Source of the DNA: Naegleria gruberi
Taxonomy: Eukaryota
Reading direction: 5' to 3' (one strand)
Length of the DNA: 64,000 bases
Assembly (NCBI GenBank): GCA_000004985.1
Contig: GG738925.1
The notes beneath the pieces were generated by a model, which searched no databases, was not told the DNA's origin, and worked only from the letters and a program-made list of their open reading frames with translations. The position numbers and the translations under genes were made by a program. Shown in pieces: positions 1,796-64,000 of this stretch (position 1 is the first letter of the stretch; every line of letters starts with the position of its first letter).

Positions 1796-3523
1796 TTATT
1801 TTTTAAGGGCATCAGATGCTTTTTTGATTTTCAAGCCAGATGGTTTGGTGATTGTGGTAGTGGCTGGTTTCTTTTCTTCTTTGACTTCTTGCTTAACTTC
1901 TTGTTTAATTTCTTGCTTTGGTTCTTGTTTGACTTCTTCTTTGACTGGTTTGGATTCAGTCTTCTTGGAGTCATTCTTATTATTCTTCTTGGCCTTGATT
2001 TCCTTTCTCTTTTCATTCTTCTTGTTGTTATTCTTTGGCTTGTCCTTCTTATTGTTAGCCTTCTTTGGCTTGTCAGTCTTTGGTTTAGTTTCAGTTGATC
2101 CTTCTTCTTGAGCCTTCTTTTCCTTCTTGGCTTGTTGACGAGCTTCCTTTTGCTTTCTTCTTTCTTCATTGAAAGGATAGAAGCTTTCCTTTTCCTTTCC
2201 AATAAGATTACCAAAATCACTTCTGTCTCTTTGAGTTTCAAAGAAGGTATGGAAATAGACATTCTTGGCTTGAACAGCAGCAAAGTTAATAGATGGATAA
2301 GTCTTTTGAAGAGATTCAAGTAAGAACTTTTCAGATATACCAACTTTTTGAGCATGTTGATACTTCTTCTTCTTATTTTCTGGTTCAGAAGAGTCAGTGG
2401 TGGAGGATTCAACCTTATCATGCTTACGCTTCTTTTCTTCTTCTGACAATTTCATAACTTCCAAATCGTGTTCTTCATCTTCCAATTTTTCTTCTTCGTC
2501 GAGTTCGAATGGAATTGAAACTTCCTTTCTTGGAGGGGTACCGAGCTTTTCAGTTCTGACTGCAATTGGTTCATCGTGATGATCATCTTCATCATCAGAG
2601 TCAGAATCACTGGAATCTTCAAATGGAACTGATTTTGGAGCACTGATTGGTGTTCTCTTTCCTGAGACAGAGGCTGGAGAAGCCTTCTTTAAAGGTGTGA
2701 GTGGTTTGGTACTTGTGGTTTCAGATGCTTCAGTCATTTTGACATCTTCATCATCTTCGTCAGAATCAGAGTCACTTGAATCAGCATATGGAACCTTTTT
2801 AGGAGTAGAAATTGGAGTACGTTTAACCTTTGCTGGAACATCTTCATCATCGCTACTATCAGCCATATTTGTTGGGAGTGACAAATTGGATGGTTTAGCT
2901 GGAGTGGAAGCTTTCTTTGGAGTGGCAGTATTAGTAGCAACTGGTTCAGCAGCAATATCAACAACAACAGATGAAACAACTTCCTTTCTTGGTGGAGTGC
3001 CGAGTCTTTCAGTTCTGACTGCAATTGGTTCATCATGATGATCATCTTCATCATCAGAATCGGAATCACTAGAATCTGCGAATGGAATAGACTTTGGAGT
3101 ACTAATTGGTGTTCTCTTACCACTAACAGAAGAAGCAGAAGGAGAAGTCTTTTTCTTCAACTTTTCAGCAGTGCTTTCTGTTGTGGCTTTTTCTTCATCA
3201 GAAGAGTCGGATTCAGAATCGCTAGAATCAGCGAATGGAACCTTCTTTGGTGTACTGATAGGTGTTCTGAGTTTAGTGGCAGACTTTGGTGTTGGTTTGG
3301 CTACTGGTGATGATGCAACAACAGCAGATGAAGCCTTGAGTGGAGTCTTCTTTGGTGTGATTGGAACAGAATCTAAAACAACAGAATCTTCATCTTCCAT
3401 TTTGTGTGGTGTCTTCTTTGGTGTTGTTGCTGGAGCTAAAGCTTTTGATGGTGTTTTGGCTGGCGACTTCAAGTCTGCGTCAGTCTTCTTTGGAGTTTGG
3501 ATTTTCTTTGGTGTTGTGCTCAT
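1796..3523 (-). CDS. Acidic Ser-cluster / Lys-rich repeat protein (Nopp140/SRP40-like nucleolar phosphoprotein architecture)
   Basis: Long minus ORF. The likely initiator is MSTTPKKIQTPKK at 3523; the ORF track starts slightly upstream. There are at least 3 internal repeats of KRTPISTPK(K/S)(V/I)PFADSSDSDSDDEDDHHDEPIAVRTE(R/K)LGTPPRKEV. Basic TPKK stretches alternate with acidic SDSESD clusters. The C-terminus is extremely K/E-rich. The function call is by architecture only. Confidence 0.55.
   Translation of the reverse strand: MSTTPKKIQTPKKTDADLKSPAKTPSKALAPATTPKKTPHKMEDEDSVVLDSVPITPKKTPLKASSAVVASSPVAKPTPKSATKLRTPISTPKKVPFADSSDSESDSSDEEKATTESTAEKLKKKTSPSASSVSGKRTPISTPKSIPFADSSDSDSDDEDDHHDEPIAVRTERLGTPPRKEVVSSVVVDIAAEPVATNTATPKKASTPAKPSNLSLPTNMADSSDDEDVPAKVKRTPISTPKKVPYADSSDSDSDEDDEDVKMTEASETTSTKPLTPLKKASPASVSGKRTPISAPKSVPFEDSSDSDSDDEDDHHDEPIAVRTEKLGTPPRKEVSIPFELDEEEKLEDEEHDLEVMKLSEEEKKRKHDKVESSTTDSSEPENKKKKYQHAQKVGISEKFLLESLQKTYPSINFAAVQAKNVYFHTFFETQRDRSDFGNLIGKEKESFYPFNEERRKQKEARQQAKKEKKAQEEGSTETKPKTDKPKKANNKKDKPKNNNKKNEKRKEIKAKKNNKNDSKKTESKPVKEEVKQEPKQEIKQEVKQEVKEEKKPATTTITKPSGLKIKKASDALKK
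2481..3090. repeat. Intragenic tandem-dispersed DNA repeats (~120 bp units) encoding the protein repeat
   Basis: About 2481..2600 and 2961..3090 are near-identical (cttcctttcttgg(a/t)gg(g/a)gt(a/g)ccgag(c/t)ttttcagttctgactgcaattggttcatc(g/a)tgatgatcatcttcatcatcaga(g/a)tc(a/g)gaatcact(g/a)gaatct). A third, shorter copy lies near 3180..3250. Confidence 0.6.
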
Positions 3524-4154
3524 TTTTTTTGAAAATAATTTTGTTCCACAAAAAAATGGCGCGTAGAATTTTATTAAAGGATTACGCTGGGATCTTTTTT
3601 TGTTTAACATCTAAAAATAAAAAATTTCCAGTCACTAGTAGAAAATCACAATTTTCACACATTGTAAGATTGTGAAATAGTTACTGAGTGATTTTTGATG
3701 AAAGTTGTAGGAAATGAAAATCAACATACAAAGTGACGTGAATATAGAGCTATAAATGAACGAAATAAAGTATAACATGTCGATGAGCCATTACAATGTT
3801 GTGAATTTAAAATGCAAGTTGAAAAAGTTCACATAAATTCTTGACTTTTTTTCGAATTGACCTTTTCATAGAATAACAATCAGCTATTGGAAACTTCACA
3901 ATAGAATATCAATCTACATGTGTTATAGTGTATACTGCAAAGTTTTAACATGTTTTGGTTTTGTCCTAGTTCAGCCGTTATTATTTCTATTTTTGTGAGA
4001 CTGTCCATATTAGGTGAAGATTCAAGATAACAGCTCAAATCAAACCTTCAATTGGTACACTTTATCACCAACCCAAAAACAATAATCTTTTCACACCAAA
4101 TCCACTAAAAACTACAAAAAATTACTAAAATTACAATTTTTTTACTCTACAGTT

Positions 4155-5351: not shown

Positions 5352-6902
5352 TTGGAATGGATTTTACAAAGACGAGTGGCCAAACGGAAAATATGGATCC
5401 TATTGTGTGTTGATGTGTGTTTGGAAGGATTGTTCTTATTAAGATTATTTATTTTACTAAAAAACAATAATTTATTTAATTTTCAATATTTTAGCAAAAT
5501 GGAATTATTATTATTTAAAAAAATGATTAAAAGACTTTGCAAGGGAGGAGCTTTTTCATCATCAGCATGGAAAGTAAGCCAATTCAATCATCAGCACTGC
5601 TCTTCAATAATTACTCCGAATTTATATAAAAATCAAAGCCTTTGCAAAATTCCGACTTTTCATAATTCATATAATAATTTAATAATTAATTCCAGCAATA
5701 ATAATAATATTAAAAGAGAATTTAGAACGAGTCAATGTACTAATTATCGATTATTTATTCAGCAATGGATCGATTTGTTGGAACCTCTCCATGTAAAGAA
5801 TAAAGTAGAAATGTGGAAGGCTGAACAATATTCGGAACAATTGTTGAATTCAATTATTGAAGAGAGAAAGTTGTTGGCCATTACTCATGAATCTATGAAT
5901 GCAAAGGATATGCTTTTTAAGGTTTTAAAGAATCGATTGGGGAATATGGATGATGACAGAGATTTTGATGAAAAGTTTTATCCATGCGATGATGATTTTA
6001 GAGTTTTGGTAAATAAGTATCATTATGTCATGTTGAAGGATGAAAGGTTTTTTGAGATTTTGAGTGAGAATTACAAGTATTTAATTCCTGAAATGTTGTA
6101 CTTGATTGAGTTTGGAGAGAAACATGATATTGATATTCCACTCAAGGTTAGACAGACATTTGGATTGGATTTTTATAGAACACAAATGAAATTGGATCAA
6201 CTGGACCCAGATCACAAATACTTGACAACCCTTCTCGTTGCTTTTTATATTCATTTGGGTAAGTGCAATAATCCAGATGTTTTGAGGGAGGAATTCTATT
6301 GGATGCTTGATTTATTTGAAAGTGACGAAAGCAACTTGCTCTTGGATTCCATTAGAATCTATCCAGGCAACACTCCATTCTTTTTAAGATCCCTTGTCTT
6401 TGAGGATACTTCTAAAATTATTGAACGAGTTTTGGATGGCAATATCAATCCAATGCTCATCATGTGGGGCCTCTTCATGGCAAAATTGGGAGAAGCCAAG
6501 GATATTCTCGATCCTCAAGACTATGATGATTTGAATAGAAAGAGCTCACAAATTCTCAGATTCCAAGATCCATCCACAGGTAACAATATTCTCCACGAAA
6601 TTATTCGATCCAACAATTCAATTGTTAACAAGATTGCTTCCATACTTCTCATAATTGGGCACGAACAAAACTTTCAAGATACTGACGATGTAATTCTCTT
6701 TGAAATGAAGAACAATGATGGGAAATCTGCTTTTCAATTGAGCACTTTGGCATTGCGTGCTACCTTTACATTAGTCGTGAGTGATTATCTTCTCATTGGT
6801 TTGATGATTTTGTGTGCTCCACTCCTTCTCCTTCTCATACCATGCTTGCTATTTGTTAGAGTATTCGCAAGATTGCTCTTCAAGACTGCCACTTTAAGAT
6901 AA
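5352..6902 (+). CDS. Hypothetical protein with C-terminal transmembrane anchor
   Basis: 516-aa ORF. The true start may be the later Met MELLLFKKMIKRL at about 5499. The C-terminus LVVSDYLLIGLMILCAPLLLLLIPCLLFVRVF is a hydrophobic tail. I recognise no family. Confidence 0.45.
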   Translation: MEWILQRRVAKRKIWILLCVDVCLEGLFLLRLFILLKNNNLFNFQYFSKMELLLFKKMIKRLCKGGAFSSSAWKVSQFNHQHCSSIITPNLYKNQSLCKIPTFHNSYNNLIINSSNNNNIKREFRTSQCTNYRLFIQQWIDLLEPLHVKNKVEMWKAEQYSEQLLNSIIEERKLLAITHESMNAKDMLFKVLKNRLGNMDDDRDFDEKFYPCDDDFRVLVNKYHYVMLKDERFFEILSENYKYLIPEMLYLIEFGEKHDIDIPLKVRQTFGLDFYRTQMKLDQLDPDHKYLTTLLVAFYIHLGKCNNPDVLREEFYWMLDLFESDESNLLLDSIRIYPGNTPFFLRSLVFEDTSKIIERVLDGNINPMLIMWGLFMAKLGEAKDILDPQDYDDLNRKSSQILRFQDPSTGNNILHEIIRSNNSIVNKIASILLIIGHEQNFQDTDDVILFEMKNNDGKSAFQLSTLALRATFTLVVSDYLLIGLMILCAPLLLLLIPCLLFVRVFARLLFKTATLR

Positions 6903-57018: not shown

Positions 57019-58503
57019 TTATTGAACGTATGGACAATTGCAACTAATGTTCTTTCCACTTACAACTGGCATGCAACCTGAACAAACATACATTGCAGAA
57101 GCTGAATATCTAGTTCTTACACTATTTTGGAAAATCACTTGAATGCATTGATTTTTACCAGTAGTTGACAAGGCAGATATTTCACTCAATGGCCAAGTGA
57201 CAGCTCCAGGAGTAATCTTACATGTATTACTGACCTCATTATCACAAAATCCACGATTGAAATCAAAAAAAAAAGTTCCATCCATATTTCTGTGAATGAC
57301 AGGTTGCATTCCAACAACAAAATCAGCAACCAACAAGGTACGTCCAAAGACAGCTACTACAATTTGATCATCAGTGATTGTTCCTGATTGACCTTTTGAG
57401 AGACTGATTGAAGAACCAAATTTTTGTAATTGATTGGTACGAATATCCATTTTGTAAGCTGTGAAAGTTTGAGGATTATTTGCTTCGGCTTCTCTCTTGG
57501 CATTGAAAGCATTGATTAAATTTTGAACATTTCTTGATCTAGTTTGCAAGTAACTTTCGTATACTTTTTTCATATTTGCTTGTTTAGGTCCATCTGGGAA
57601 AGCTCTCCAAATTGGAATGGTTTCCAATCGAACAGGGACTGGATTCATTGCAAAAGTTGCAGTTCTTTGGTGAATATTGGAAATTTGAGGATTTCCACCC
57701 ACAATGTCCAATTGTGAAACTTTGTGATATCTAACGTAACCATTTGGAAGTTTGGACACATCTGAGGATCCATCAATTGAATACTGTAATTCTTGAGAAA
57801 TGTATTGCATCATTTGTGGATCATTGAAACAAGATCTAATGGAAACAGTCATGTCAACAATTCCTCCATACTTGATACTGGTGGCAATAGAATCACCAAA
57901 TGAGGTTAAAACAAGATTGTACATATCCCAATCCATTTGTTCTGGCAAAATGTCAATAATTTGTTGGAATTCGTCTGTCACTCTAATATCAGGTGCATTA
58001 ACTGAATGAGTGAAAAATTGCTTTTGAGAATCTACAATATACAATTCTCCTTCAAAATATTTGGAAAATATCAAATCAATTCCAGCATTTGAATGACTAT
58101 ACAATCCATTAAATACTGATTGACCATCACTTGGATTGACCATTGAGAAGTATTCACTTGCTGTTGTCATTGTCTTTGTAAAACTCAGGTCAGAAACCCA
58201 AGAACTAGCAGGACCTGACTTGAGAACTTGTGGTTTAATTGAGAAATCTTCTCTACTGTAACCAACGCCAGCAATAATCAAATTATCCATCAATGCTCTG
58301 CTGGTCATATTTCTTGAACCACCAGCTGCATTGAGTGATCTCGCATTGGATCGACATTCAAATCCTCGCATATTAATAAAACATCTATTCTCCATCTTTC
58401 CTATTTGTTGAGACAATTTTGCATTAAAATTTGGAAAGGCCCTTAATTTATCGACACTGTGTGCCTTAACAAATAGAAATATATCTATGATGATGATGAT
58501 CAA
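57019..58503 (-). CDS. Hypothetical protein, possibly MACPF-like pore-forming domain
   Basis: 494-aa ORF. The segment LVLTSFGDSIATSIKYGGIVDM resembles the MACPF signature (Y/F-G-T/S-H-F-x6-G-G), and there are C-terminal Cys pairs. The assignment is weak. Confidence 0.4.
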   Translation of the reverse strand: MIIIIIDIFLFVKAHSVDKLRAFPNFNAKLSQQIGKMENRCFINMRGFECRSNARSLNAAGGSRNMTSRALMDNLIIAGVGYSREDFSIKPQVLKSGPASSWVSDLSFTKTMTTASEYFSMVNPSDGQSVFNGLYSHSNAGIDLIFSKYFEGELYIVDSQKQFFTHSVNAPDIRVTDEFQQIIDILPEQMDWDMYNLVLTSFGDSIATSIKYGGIVDMTVSIRSCFNDPQMMQYISQELQYSIDGSSDVSKLPNGYVRYHKVSQLDIVGGNPQISNIHQRTATFAMNPVPVRLETIPIWRAFPDGPKQANMKKVYESYLQTRSRNVQNLINAFNAKREAEANNPQTFTAYKMDIRTNQLQKFGSSISLSKGQSGTITDDQIVVAVFGRTLLVADFVVGMQPVIHRNMDGTFFFDFNRGFCDNEVSNTCKITPGAVTWPLSEISALSTTGKNQCIQVIFQNSVRTRYSASAMYVCSGCMPVVSGKNISCNCPYVQ

Positions 58504-58770: not shown

Positions 58771-59997
58771 TTACATGTTGATGACAATTTTACCAACTGT
58801 TCTTTGAGATGCCATCAAATCGTCTGCTTTCTGTTTTTGAAAATTGAATAAATATTTAAATTAAATAATTAACAAACTTACCTGATAATCTTCCAAAGAA
58901 AAGCTAGTGATAGGAATCTTTTCAAATATTGGACTGAATTGTTCACTTGCTAGGAATTTCATAATTCTTGGATTATCTGGACTTGTGGAGAAGAAGAAAT
59001 AATATGGATTCTGAGCTGACCACCAACTCTTGAACTTATTCTTGAGAATATACCACACAATGGCAGGAACAGTTGAATAGGACAACTCGAGTGGTCCTGG
59101 TGGAGCAATAGCTACATGATAGGTTCTTCTTCCATCATCTGTACAACATTTCAAGTGTCTTGTCAAATCATCGTAATAATAATATCCTCCAACACAATCC
59201 ATAACCATATCCACAAAATCAATCTTGAAATCCTTTTTAAGAGTTTGGAAAATACTCAATTTTTCATCACCTGAATGAAAGGTATTGTTTCCAAATGCTG
59301 CACTTGTCTTAGTATAGTCAATTACTCCATCAGCACCGAGTTGCTCTCTGGCAAATGTGGAATTCCTTTCAGAGCAAACAGCAATTACCTTGGTATTGAA
59401 ATATCTCGATAAAAAGTTCTTGGCAAACAGCACAGCCATACATCCTGTTCCTGAACTTGCTCCAATCACAACAATGGTCAATGATTTCTTTTCTGATTCC
59501 TCATATTCTGGTGTTAATTCTTGACCAAGTGAAACTCTATCTGCCTCTCTTTCAATAATTGGCAAAATCCAATCATGTGATCTACACATCTCCACAATCG
59601 TCATTCCAATGCCTGGTATTATCGAAGCATGATCAAAATCCAAAGATTTAGGTTTTAACACCACTTCCTTTTCCTTAAAAACTGCAAACTCAGCATAGGC
59701 TCCAGTTTTAATCAAATCTCCAAATACTCCAACCACTTCATCTCCAACCTGAATTGAATTTACCTTCTCTCCAACTCTCTCCACCACACCACTTCCTTCC
59801 TTTCCCAAAATACATGGAAATTGCATGGAAATGAAACTCTTAGCTGCTCCACTTCTCATTGTATAATCACCACGATTCATTGAGGCTGATTTTAATCGAA
59901 CCATTACTTGATCACTCTTCGGATCAAAGGCTGGCAAATCCCAGTCCAATTTTAATTCGGAAGGTTTGGCATAGTCTGTGATGATTTGTGCTTTCAT
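58771..59997 (-). CDS. Medium-chain dehydrogenase/reductase (zinc-ADH / quinone oxidoreductase-like), 2 exons
   Basis: Exon 1 is 59997..58892 (MKAQIITDYAKPSELK...GDEVVGV...IGASSGTGCMAV...). A gtaagt donor follows. The intron is about 58891..58832. Exon 2 encodes KADDLMASQRTVGKIVINM, with the stop at 58771..58773. Confidence 0.75.
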
Positions 59998-60245
59998 TTT
60001 TTTTATTTGGAGGAAACTGAAAATTTGGAAAATGTTTGAATTTAAAGTGAGATGCGTACGTATTAAATTTTGATTGTAATTTGGCAATGAATTAGTACGT
60101 ACGTAGACATGTGTTTTTCTTTTAATCATATCTTGCACGAGGAATGGATTGCACCAAGAACACATCCAACAACATACTGTATGGCTGGGTCAATCCAATC
60201 ACTCTTAGCAATGGAGAATACAATCTTAATATTACAATAGTGTCT

Positions 60246-62918
60246 TTATTGAAGAGTGGAGAGACGATCCAAAATTTCATCAAGTGTGATTCTGTCAGCA
60301 GTGTTTAATCTGAGCATTGAAATTACCAATTCAACGAGTCCTGTAGAGTATGGATAGTGTTGATTCTTGATAATGCTTGATCTGAGATGATTCATTACCT
60401 TTTCTTCATTACCATACTTCATAATGAGACCATTAATCATGGTGACAGTATCAAAAGTAAGGAGTTGGTAACACGTTACACCCAAAGCAAAAATGTCAGC
60501 AGAAGCAAACATGGCAGTATTTTCTTCCAATTCTTCAGAAATGTCCAAAAGTTCTGGTGGAATGAATTGAAGAGAACCAGCTTGTTGAATATCACTTGCA
60601 GAATCACTGACTGATTTGGATAAACGGAATCCAATTAAAACAGTGTCAATATTTTCAGAAGGATCCCATTCTCTCAGTAAAATATTATGTGGTTTGATGT
60701 TTCTGTGAACAATCTTGTGTTTGTTCATGTATTGGAGGGTACCAATGATTTGAGAAATAAACTTCTTAATGACTGCTTCTTTCAAAACAACTTTTTGTTT
60801 GATAAGGCTCTCAAGACTTCCCTTGTCGTAGTAATCCATTTCCACACAGAGCGTACTCTTGTTTGTAAGATCGTTTGAGTTTTGGTTATTCTCTGGAATT
60901 TTGCATTTCAAAACAGCAACATCTCTAACACCAATAATATGGTCTTGTCTTAATTTGATTAAATTCATGGCAGATTTGAGAGACTTGTTGAGAGCTTCGG
61001 TACTAAAGAAATCTACCAATTTTACAGCAATTACTGGAGGATCATCTTTTCCTCTATTAAATTTCTTTGCCTTGTATACATATCCGTTAGTTCCCTTGCC
61101 TAAAAGTTGCATCTTTCTATATCTTTCCTTCAAAATCATTTCCAAAGATTTTGGTTCTTCTGGATCAAAGTCATGTTCTCTATTCTCATCACCAACATAA
61201 TGAACCGCCATAGAATCAGAAGATGTAATTGGTGGTGAGCCTGCATCAAAGTTAGGAACTGGAATTGGAGAGTCTTCAGGAGGAGATGTTTCAGAAGAAA
61301 CTGGTGAAACTTGGGAAGGTTGTGGAATGCAATCTAGAACATCAACTGGAGTAGAAATCACAGTTGGAGAAGGAGTAAAGGTTGATTCAGTTACTCTAGG
61401 AACTGATGGAGAATGCGGTCTATTATTGATTGATGGAGGATATTGAGGAGGTAAAGTACTAGACACGCTATTATAGAGTGGTGGAGCAGTTGATTGCCCA
61501 AATGGTTGTGTTTGAAGGAAATAGTTTGGTGGTGGTGGTTGAATAGGTTGATAGGTTTGAGGTTGCGCATTTGAGAGTATTGGTTGATAGATAGATTGAG
61601 CTTGTTGGAATGTGTAAGAAGGAGGAGGTTGATTAAGAGTTGGTTGGTTAATAATCAAATTGCCTTGGTATGAAGGAGGTGAAACAATTTGAGGTTGAGG
61701 CACATTCCCATATACAAGTGCATTCAAATCAATTCCGTTATGTTTGACTCTTTCTTCGCAGGTCAATCCAAATTCATCTCTTATATACATATTTGCTCCA
61801 TTTTTGATTAATGTCTTGACAACATTCCAGTGTTTGCATTGAATAGCAACTTGAAGAGAATTCATGTTGCGATCCATAACTTTCAAATCAACTTGAGCTC
61901 CATGTTTTATCAACCATTCAACTGCCTCTGGATTGTTATGTTTAGATAATACATAGAGTGGTGTTTCACGTTCTTGATTCAAACAATCCACAATGAGAAT
62001 GTTATGTTTAAGATTCTTAGTAATAAGATAATTAGCTCTTTCAAAATTCCTTATACGGAGAGCATTAATAAATTTTTCAACTTGAGTAGCAATTACTTGA
62101 TTAACAATAATGTCCATGCTTGGATTTGTTGGAATGGTAACTGTTTTTGGCTTGGCACCCATTCTAATGAGATAGGAAGCAAATGGAATAAGATTTCTTT
62201 CCATACAATATTGTAAAATACTTCTTCCATAAATTATTCCATTAGTATTGCCTCCTCTTCTAATGAGGAATTTCAACATTTTCATATTTACAGAATCTAC
62301 AGCTACACCAAGAGCAGTCTAATTTCCGTTTTATCCATTATTGTAAATTAAAATTCATTTCAATCACCATTAAAATCTTCATATTAGAATTTTAAATACT
62401 TACGCACTAATCATCAATTAATTTATCAGTTAAATTATAAAGAAATATGAAAATTTACTTACTCCACTAGTATCACAATCATTTATTCCGGCTTCTCTGT
62501 TATTGATCATGGCTTCAACCATTTCATAATTTCCCTCCCGAACCATCTTTAAAAGCAAGCTAATCTTTCCATTGTTACCTTGTTGATAATTATTGTTAGC
62601 ACAATTACTAGTATTACTACTCGTATTCATACCACTCGAATTATTATTAATATTATTAATATTATTATTATAATTATTATTGCTACCCGGAAGAGAAGCT
62701 TGTCCAGATCCACCCGATCCCATCGCCATGCCCATCGAAGCAACCATAAAGGACGAAGATGACAATGGACTCGTTGTCGTAGTGGTTGTTGTTGTTAGTA
62801 GTGGTGAGGAGGGTTTTTCATCAGCACCTCCTCCTGCTAAATCATCTTGTTGTTTTCCACCATCATCATTGCTCGAACTGGAGAGTTTCATTTTTTGTCG
62901 TAGTGTTTGAAAGACCAT
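60246..62918 (-). CDS. Ankyrin-repeat protein kinase-like protein with degenerate catalytic motifs (predicted pseudokinase), 2 exons
   Basis: Exon 1 is 62918..62463 (low-complexity N-terminus, first ANK). A gtaagt donor follows. The intron is 62462..62319. Exon 2 is 62318..60246. It has about 5 ankyrin repeats (GxTALhxAV..G), a P/Q-rich linker and a kinase fold. The Gly loop LGKGTNGYVY and AVK lysine are present. The catalytic loop HRD is replaced by VHRNIKPHNILL. DFG is replaced by LIGFRLSK. APE is replaced by PPELLD. Confidence 0.75.
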
Positions 62919-63557
62919 CGTGATGCAAAGTTCATGTGTTGTTGTAGTTGATTGTCTATTGTTGTTGTTGGTGATGAAAGTTGTTTGGTTAAAGAAAGTT
63001 TGGAGGGGTTGGTGTTGATCTTCCGAAAGAAGCTGAAAACGAAAGACTATTTTTTTTGTTTTTTGGCCAAGTCACTTGCCAAATAGAAGGCACATGTGAA
63101 AGGTGAATTAATTTTGGTATTTGTTGTGAATATGGGAGTGGATTTGATTGGTTGGACAGAAAGTTTGTGAATATCTATGAACAACAAGTTCATTTATTAC
63201 AATAAAAACTTGATCAAGCAACAGACTTGGTTGTATCCTATTGTGTGATTTTCTCAGAAATTACGAACGCGCAAAGAAATCTCAATCCAACTTAATGACA
63301 TAATTCAAATAGAACCAATAATGTTACCTATTCTCAACTTGCATCGTTTTCCAATTATCAATCCTATTCTGAAATATTAGAAAAGCTCCCAATTACCGTT
63401 GATAATTACAGAGAAGTATTACTTCATAGTAGTTGTCCTGGAATCCCAAAATTAAAAAAGATTGTAAACAGTCTTTTTAGATAAATTCCATTATTGTAAC
63501 TCAATCAATTTGTAATAGCACAACATCTATCCAATGATAATCCGAATTGTACTAACT

Positions 63558-64000
63558 GATCAAAAAAATGTCTCTTGAAAATCAAATAATACTTGTAGCA
63601 GGAGGTGCAGGGGTTGTGGGAAGTGGTATAGTAAAAAAGTGTCTTCAAGCAGGTGCAAGAGTTATTGTTCCTTCCCGTAGTGAAGCTCGTCTCTCTCAAT
63701 TGGAGAAAGAAATTGAAAAAGTGAATAATGGTTGGACAGAAAGGTTGGTGCCAATGTTCCAAGACAATTATGAATTGGATTGTGAAAAGGCAGTGGAGGA
63801 TACTAGGAATGAGATATTGAAAAAGTATGGCAGAATTGATCATGTGATTTCCTCGTTGGGTTGTTGGTGGGAGAAGAGCTATCCAACAGATACATCCATT
63901 TCCGATTTCAGACAAGTATTGGACAGCTTTCTTACCAGTAATTTGATATATGCTAAATACTTTCTGGGTTGTGTTAAAAGCTATACGATTATTACTGATA
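63558..64000 (+). CDS. NAD(P)-binding Rossmann-fold dehydrogenase (SDR/NmrA-like), 5' partial (runs off window)
   Basis: The ATG is at 63558. MSLENQIILVAGGAGVVGSGIVKKCLQAGARVIVPSRSEARLSQLEKE...GRIDHVISSLG has the TGxxGxxG Rossmann motif. It is open to the end of the window. Confidence 0.5.

Follow-up and report, generated by a model that had tools for sequence, protein, structure and literature searches.

A predicted ankyrin-repeat pseudokinase conserved between Naegleria gruberi and Naegleria fowleri

The nuclear DNA analyzed here, a 64,000-nucleotide window from Naegleria gruberi contig GG738925.1 (assembly GCA_000004985.1), is AT-rich (about 34% GC), and short introns bounded by GTAAGT and TAG are present in it. 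At 60246..62918, on the minus strand, lies a gene whose product combines an ankyrin-repeat domain, a long linker and a protein kinase domain in which the catalytic Asp and the Mg-binding Asp have both been replaced. The parts of the gene and of the encoded protein are listed below, with the confidence of the predicted structure given as pLDDT (predicted local distance difference test).

60246..62918, minus strand: whole gene, two exons encoding 842 amino acids, with the ATG at 62918 and the TAA at 60248..60246
62918..62463, minus strand: exon 1 of the two-exon model
62462..62319, minus strand: phase-0 intron with a GTAAGT donor and a TAG acceptor, after Gly152, within the first ankyrin repeat
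62318..60246, minus strand: exon 2, ending at the TAA (60248..60246)
62577..62918, minus strand: residues 1-114, low-complexity N-terminus (poly-Thr, Asn-rich), predicted to be disordered (pLDDT about 25)
61710..62576, with the intron inside the span, minus strand: residues 115-355, ankyrin-repeat domain of about four repeats plus caps
61149..61709, minus strand: residues 356-542, linker of 187 amino acids rich in Pro, Gln, Ser and Tyr, predicted to be disordered (pLDDT 25-30)
61668-61679, 61614-61625, 61521-61532, 61473-61484 and 61440-61451, minus strand: five PPxY motifs between residues 366 and 445
60249..61148, minus strand: residues 543-842, pseudokinase domain, predicted to adopt a complete bilobal kinase fold

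Pfam Pkinase (PF00069) matched residues 552-836 over nearly its full length (profile positions 1-259 of 263), with E 1.9e-31 and a score of 109.9 bits, the cutoff being 31.7. When the domain was modelled alone with AlphaFold2 (AF2), it reached a pLDDT of 83.4 and a predicted template modelling score (pTM) of 0.83, with only the beta4-beta5 insert and the activation loop uncertain. A Foldseek search with this model returned ULK1, PhK, CaMKII and CDK12 at probability 1.00; the closest solved folds are those of ordinary active kinases. The ankyrin domain matched Ank_2, Ank_3, Ank, Ank_5 and Ank_4, all above the Pfam cutoffs, and the best stretch fell inside residues 247-333. The full-length model shows this domain at pLDDT 80-90 with four repeat-like helix pairs, and a long predicted helical hairpin (residues 218-256) interrupts the repeats. 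With a pTM of 0.36, the full-length AF2 model is one from which contacts between the ankyrin and kinase domains are not readable.

It took an exhaustive HMMER search, run against 1.8 billion representative proteins, to find the orthologues. Homology searches based on word indexes contributed little: with the full-length protein as query they matched only N. gruberi entries and three weak, unrelated proteins, probably because low-complexity words, those of the N-terminal tract included, swamped the search; with the kinase domain they matched nothing, the protein itself included; and with the profile they returned distant generic kinases only. The two orthologue-level matches in the HMMER search were N. 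fowleri XP_044565120.1 (844 amino acids, kinase domain 62% identical) and a metagenomic protein (590 amino acids as called, 59% identical) whose contig also carries the conserved intron and the upstream exon with the MVF start. Both have the ankyrin-linker-kinase layout, HRN and GFR where active kinases read HRD and DFG, and a residue other than Glu at the alphaC position. The other named strong matches that we looked up (E below about 1e-22) are uncharacterized proteins of Naegleria and Willaertia with a canonical alphaC Glu, HRD and DFG.

The kinase domain was aligned with PKA and 12 family members, and residue numbers were mapped to PKA, whose numbering was checked within the same alignment. 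The positions that matter for catalysis are as follows.

61083..61100, minus strand: intact Gly-rich loop GKGTNG, residues 559-564, with G559, G561 and G564 at PKA G50, G52 and G55; GxGxxG is present in all three orthologues
61020..61031, minus strand: IAVK, residues 582-585, with the beta3 Lys kept as K585 (PKA K72), in an invariant alignment column
60972..60974, minus strand: S601 at the position of the alphaC Glu (PKA E91), which is lost
60684..60707, minus strand: catalytic loop HRNIKPHN, residues 690-697, with N692 in place of the catalytic Asp (D166)
60624..60632, minus strand: GFR instead of DFG, residues 715-717, with G715 for the Mg-binding D184, F716 at F185 and R717 for G186
60585-60587, minus strand: Q730 at the activation-loop phospho-acceptor position (PKA T197), where the Ser/Thr is lost
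60552..60560, minus strand: PPE instead of APE, residues 739-741, with the Glu kept as E741 (PKA E208)

An initial annotation of this gene had held that the kinase fold, the Gly-rich loop and the beta3 Lys are preserved and that the catalytic base and the DFG Asp are both replaced, and the Pfam match and the PKA alignment agree with it on each of these points. Alignments by phmmer to solved kinases (CDPK, TNIK) likewise place HRN on HRD, the IGF that includes the start of GFR on the IDF/VDF of DFG, and PPE on APE. The further claim that all three catalytic signatures are altered was overstated: it stands for HRD to HRN and for DFG to GFR, and falls for APE to PPE. The functional Glu is still present, and this position reads PPE, PPE and PSE in the three orthologues and SPE or APE in active paralogues; the last substitution is not a catalytic change and is without functional significance. 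No canonical motif that might have been overlooked lies nearby, since a six-frame scan of 59000-64000 found no HRDxxxxN, and the sole DFG sits in an antisense open reading frame (ORF).

Three features came to light in addition to those annotated initially, namely the intron at 62462..62319 and the losses at S601 and Q730. The other two orthologues have Thr or Ala at the alphaC position, where every aligned paralogue has Glu, and this variation (Ser, Thr, Ala) indicates relaxed constraint there. The T197 position is Ser or Thr in 9 of 10 aligned paralogue domains and Gln, Gln and Glu in the three pseudokinase orthologues, in which the Arg of HRN is kept. Much of the remaining framework is retained, including K694 and N697 of the catalytic loop (PKA K168 and N171), the alphaF Asp D760 (PKA D220) and the alphaH-I Arg R828 (PKA R280). 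The regulatory spine is kept as H690 (the His of HRN), F716 (the Phe of GFR), L605 and V616, and both hydrophobic spines are intact. In sequence terms, a pseudokinase is defined by the absence of at least one of K72, the HRD Asp D166 and the DFG Asp D184 (PMC13519141); here D166 is replaced by N692 and D184 by G715, and K72 is kept as K585.

The orthologues also bear on the gene model. The encoded protein is 100% identical to XP_002669571.1, annotated as "predicted protein [Naegleria gruberi]" (NAEGRDRAFT_75509, UniProt D2W297), and exon 2 by itself is an uninterrupted ORF of 679 codons. The public model of XP_002669571.1 begins nine codons downstream, at the second Met (62891), and adds one Cys through a 3-nucleotide micro-exon (TGC, about 62404-62406) placed between two GTAAGT introns. 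The MVF start is common to N. gruberi, N. fowleri and the metagenomic orthologue, and a single phase-0 intron follows the same Gly in all three (marked by a slash: SG/TALG, SG/TALG in N. fowleri, and NG/NALG on the metagenomic contig). In N. fowleri this intron lies at 3325..3592 of the retrieved locus (L001, VFQX01000019.1). We prefer the MVF start at 62918 and the single intron over the public model because the orthologues share both, and we rejected the micro-exon of the Joint Genome Institute model and its extra Cys, for which the orthologues give no support. A second N. fowleri intron (5451-5624 of the same locus) directly follows the GFRLSKST segment and is not found in N. gruberi. The genome contains a second N. 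gruberi entry, XP_002668518.1 (NAEGRDRAFT_76568), on a 36.9-kb contig, which is 99% identical with two amino acid differences (V to A and G to A) and has a shorter gene model from which the Gly-rich-loop region is missing; it probably represents the other haplotype, an assembly duplicate or a very recent copy. A search of one literature library returned no paper mentioning the locus tags of this gene, and no survey of the Naegleria kinome or of its pseudokinases.

To place the kinase domain among known groups, we compared the family profile with solved kinases, and CDPK, ULK, NEK, SLK and PKR all matched at about 1e-35 to 1e-43, with no group preferred. NEK kinases with ankyrin repeats are an expansion of the Giardia type; in the profile comparison, NEK1, NEK2 and NEK7 matched at E 1e-36 to 1e-40, no better than CDPK, ULK and SLK at E 1e-38 to 1e-43. 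The family looks like an expansion specific to Naegleria and Willaertia amoebae. In a neighbor-joining tree of 39 domains based on Kimura distances, the three HRN/GFR sequences formed a clade (bootstrap 90) whose sister (bootstrap 74) was the cluster of N. lovaniensis XP_044547653.1, an ankyrin-kinase with canonical HRD and DFG. Its alignment with the pseudokinase is collinear over the whole of exon 2, from the ankyrin region through the linker to the kinase domain (tblastn E 2e-68), and the ankyrin modules of the two proteins are homologues (E 2e-19 at 27% identity). Because a canonical sister in the tree, a collinear alignment and homologous ankyrin modules all point the same way, we conclude from the sequences that the pseudokinase arose by duplication of an active ankyrin-kinase. 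The catalytic residues were probably lost before N. gruberi and N. fowleri split.

The active paralogues, such as XP_044547653.1 and W. magna KAL9646409.1, share with the pseudokinase the ankyrin-linker-kinase layout, the homologous ankyrin modules including the long inter-repeat helix, a kinase domain that is 32-39% identical, and the activation segment (SKSVSDSAS versus AKSVGDSAS). Unlike it, they keep the alphaC Glu, HRD, DFG and the activation-loop Ser/Thr and are without PPxY motifs, and all are uncharacterized "hypothetical proteins". Altered motifs were also seen in other proteins. The third of three tandem kinase domains in N. lovaniensis XP_044546712.1 reads HRS and GGFG, and a weaker match, the cyanobacterial protein WP_052754507.1 of Calothrix sp. 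336/3, has tandem domains with HRN or HHQ plus GFG, GFS or GFV.

Evolutionary constraint differed among the regions of the protein. Between N. gruberi and N. fowleri, the kinase domain is 61.5% identical, the ankyrin domain 54.7%, and the linker and the N-terminus about 31% (for the N-terminus with large gaps). N. fowleri has a shorter N-terminus, and the poly-Thr run and the Asn-rich tract are found largely in N. gruberi alone. The ratio of nonsynonymous to synonymous substitution rates (dN/dS), calculated by the Nei-Gojobori method, was 0.16-0.17 for the kinase domain, the lowest of any region, compared with 0.25-0.33 for the ankyrin domain and 0.62-0.73 for the linker; dS was near saturation, and the ratios are therefore rough. 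The altered residues themselves have been kept through synonymous change, as Gly715 is encoded by GGA, GGT and GGC and Arg717 by CGT, CGT and AGA across the three orthologues; the AAC codon of N692 is identical in all three. Because HRN and GFR are shared, their codons have turned over synonymously and dN/dS in the kinase domain is low, the loss of the catalytic residues is conserved and selectively maintained, and not the mark of a pseudogene, an artefact or a sequencing error. The initial proposal of a pseudokinase, or of a kinase with a non-canonical mechanism, tethered to an ankyrin scaffold is supported by the presence of both domains and by the orthologues that share HRN and GFR, which point to conserved loss.

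We therefore favor, as the likely reading of these sequences, a maintained pseudokinase of Naegleria and close relatives in which an ankyrin domain, a disordered linker with PPxY motifs and a dead kinase domain together act as a scaffold or allosteric regulator. A duplicated ankyrin-kinase would have lost the alphaC Glu, the catalytic Asp, the Mg-binding Asp and the activation-loop phospho-acceptor and would have kept its fold, its spines and the residues of the nucleotide pocket. Phosphotransfer is very unlikely on sequence grounds, because the general base, the Mg ligand and the Lys-Glu salt bridge were lost together, along with the residue that serves as the phospho-switch of RD kinases. 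The protein would thus phosphorylate no substrates itself, and its kinase domain may work as a protein-interaction or conformational-switch module, while the ankyrin domain and the five PPxY motifs may recruit partners. Four classes of pseudokinase function have been catalogued (PMC13519141). The protein could be a scaffold or could regulate a partner allosterically, and its active ankyrin-kinase sister is a plausible candidate for that partner, on the model of the HER3-EGFR and JH2-JH1 pairs (PMC13519141).

Because the pocket residues are invariant and an Arg was gained and kept at the position of the DFG Gly, we infer a nucleotide-binding and probably cation-independent pseudokinase. In STRADalpha, Arg215 of the GLR motif tethers the beta-phosphate of ATP without Mg (PMC2686265), and in ILK, Lys341 of the DVK motif occupies the same position and contacts the gamma-phosphate (PMC4718504). 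By analogy, ATP is probably still bound without a cation by the predicted pseudokinase domain, and the phosphates would be held by R717 in concert with K585, K694 and N697, much as Arg215 holds them in STRADalpha.

Active-site features are shared with STRADalpha, the STE20-related adaptor pseudokinase that activates LKB1. Both proteins are without the HRD Asp and the DFG Asp, both have the catalytic-loop Lys, and GLR (213-215) corresponds to GFR (715-717). However, the beta3 Lys, the catalytic-loop Asn and the glycines of the Gly-rich loop are kept in the Naegleria protein and replaced in STRADalpha (K72R, N171H), and the Naegleria protein has an ankyrin domain and a PPxY linker and is without the C-terminal WEF motif. 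Membership in STRAD (STE20) was rejected, as the nearest relatives are canonical kinases of Naegleria and Willaertia, the family profile has no STE20 preference, and K585 and N697 are kept; the likeness to STRADalpha is convergent, and the two are not orthologous.

The domain order, in turn, recalls ILK and RNase L, whose pseudokinase domains work through binding. In ILK, too, ankyrin repeats at the N-terminus precede the pseudokinase domain, which is without a catalytic Asp and has a basic residue (Lys341) at the DFG-Gly position that contacts ATP (PMC4718504). It differs in keeping the DFG Asp, in having a degraded Gly-rich loop and in being without N171. RNase L also places ankyrin repeats before a pseudokinase and senses its ligand between those two domains (PMC13519141), whereas a disordered linker of 187 amino acids separates the two domains of the Naegleria protein and sets it apart from both ILK and RNase L. 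Neither ILK nor RNase L was among the 60 best solved chains matching the family profile, and ILK was likewise absent when the protein itself was the query. Membership in ILK (TKL) was rejected on the absence of an ILK match among these 60 chains, the loss of the DFG Asp and the intact Gly-rich loop.

Substitutions of the same kind are known from several animal pseudokinases. HRN occurs also in HER3, in JAK2 JH2 and in primate PSKH2, and EphA10, with HRG plus GFG, has likewise lost the HRD Asp and has Gly for the DFG Asp (PMC7586955). HER3 is similar in that its alphaC Glu is also gone (PMC4718504), and HER3, PSKH2 and the JH2 domains are, like the Naegleria protein, pseudokinases with a close active paralogue. 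On the other hand, HER3, JH2 and PSKH2 keep the DFG Asp. HER3, JAK2 JH2 and EphA10 belong to the tyrosine-kinase group and PSKH2 to the CAMK group, all of them animal proteins, whereas the Naegleria protein comes from a heterolobosean expansion of Ser/Thr kinases. It thus appears to be an uncharacterized member of a well-known class, the pseudokinases, that belongs to none of the ILK, STRAD and HER3/JH2/PSKH2 families.

The linker adds a feature of its own. PPxY is the ligand of class I WW domains. The N. fowleri linker also contains five PPxY motifs, despite a linker identity of about 31%. Shuffles that preserved composition gave means of 0.42 (N. gruberi) and 0.29 (N. fowleri) motifs, with none of 20000 reaching five, and the recurrence of Tyr after PPx has a binomial probability of about 1e-4. 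Among 160 retrieved proteins, only these orthologues have more than one PPxY, and the rest have at most one. Five conserved motifs would point to a partner of the WW type, in a lineage from which Nedd4-type ligases are reported to be absent.

It is conceivable that the domain binds no nucleotide at all and is a pure scaffold, offering a rigid interaction surface like that of TRIB, NRBP1 or VRK3. Two of the usual anchors for nucleotide or cation are gone with the alphaC Glu and the DFG Asp, and the relaxed alphaC position fits such a role. However, pseudokinases that do not bind nucleotides usually have a degraded Gly-rich loop and are often without the beta3 Lys (PMC7586955, Table 1). Here GxGxxG, K585, K694 and N697 are invariant over about 40% sequence divergence, and a basic residue has been acquired and kept at the DFG-Gly position, so that we regard a scaffold of this type as improbable.

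A second alternative is that the protein is an atypical active kinase, in which residual activity of the HER3 type (HRN) is combined with cation-independent catalysis of the CASK type, where DFG reads GFG. Such a kinase would explain the strict conservation, across the three orthologues, of the Gly-rich loop, the beta3 Lys, the catalytic-loop Lys and Asn, the APE Glu and both spines, and both CASK, which is without D184, and HER3, which is without E91 and D166, are somewhat active (PMC4718504). In the Naegleria protein, however, E91, D166 and D184 are absent together and the activation-loop phospho-acceptor is gone as well, and of the precedents named in the cited papers that have neither D166 nor D184, STRADalpha is inactive and EphA10 is predicted to be so (PMC7586955, PMC2686265, PMC4718504). 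We consider an active kinase quite improbable. The notion of a decaying pseudogene, annotation artefact or sequencing error, to which the one or two nucleotide changes that suffice for each substitution and the 99%-identical second copy with its shorter gene model might lend color, is effectively refuted by the intact exon 2, by a start, an intron position and an architecture conserved in three lineages, by the low kinase dN/dS (about 0.16), and by the occurrence of the same substitutions in independently sequenced genomes.

Several considerations weigh against our preferred reading of a nucleotide-binding pseudokinase that recruits partners and regulates its sister kinase. Some predicted pseudokinases (CASK, HER3, JAK2 JH2) keep weak or atypical activity (PMC4718504), and the conserved Gly-rich loop, K585, K694 and N697 fit residual catalysis as well as they fit nucleotide sensing. 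The analogy for ATP binding turns on one residue, because the beta3 Lys and the catalytic-loop Asn are kept here, unlike in STRADalpha, and the models give low confidence to the activation segment, the residues that directly follow GFR among them. The pairing with the sister kinase would be an analogy only. The classic readers of PPxY are ligases of the Nedd4 type with a C2-WW-HECT arrangement; a survey of HECT ligases reports these from no groups other than Holozoa, Fungi and Apusozoa and describes Excavata as HECT-poor (PMC3673628). A more specific proposal, that of an independently evolved heterolobosean, STRADalpha-like and metal-independent ATP-sensing pseudokinase, joined to ankyrin repeats and a linker with multiple PPxY motifs, in which the Arg of GFR replaces Mg and which allosterically controls its active ankyrin-kinase sister and recruits a WW partner other than Nedd4, is possible, if doubtful. 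If it were true, a basic residue at the DFG-Gly position would be a convergent solution found far outside animals.

Roughly 10% or more of the members of kinomes are pseudokinases, and how they act has been well catalogued (PMC13519141); because they are so common, another pseudokinase from a protist is not surprising, and no long-standing question is addressed by this one. Its modest value lies in offering a clean and dated case of the passage from kinase to pseudokinase, in which the active sister survives and the predicted inactive form has become fixed throughout Naegleria, the pathogen N. fowleri included. GFR repeats by convergence a device of STRADalpha and ILK, which makes metal-free ATP binding directly testable. 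This convergence of GFR with GLR and the conserved linker with multiple PPxY motifs are the sole features likely to draw specialists.

The surroundings of the gene have not been conserved along with it. The N. fowleri locus is flanked by genes for a tetrahydrofolate dehydrogenase/cyclohydrolase, an F-box/leucine-rich repeat protein and a phosphatidylserine synthase, none of which has a counterpart beside the N. gruberi gene, and conserved synteny between the two species was therefore rejected. Downstream of the N. gruberi gene, and also on the minus strand, lie an ORF at 58861-60165 that resembles medium-chain dehydrogenases/reductases (ADH_N, E 1.4e-14) and a second ORF, at 57019-58503, that encodes a MACPF/perforin domain (E 2.8e-07).

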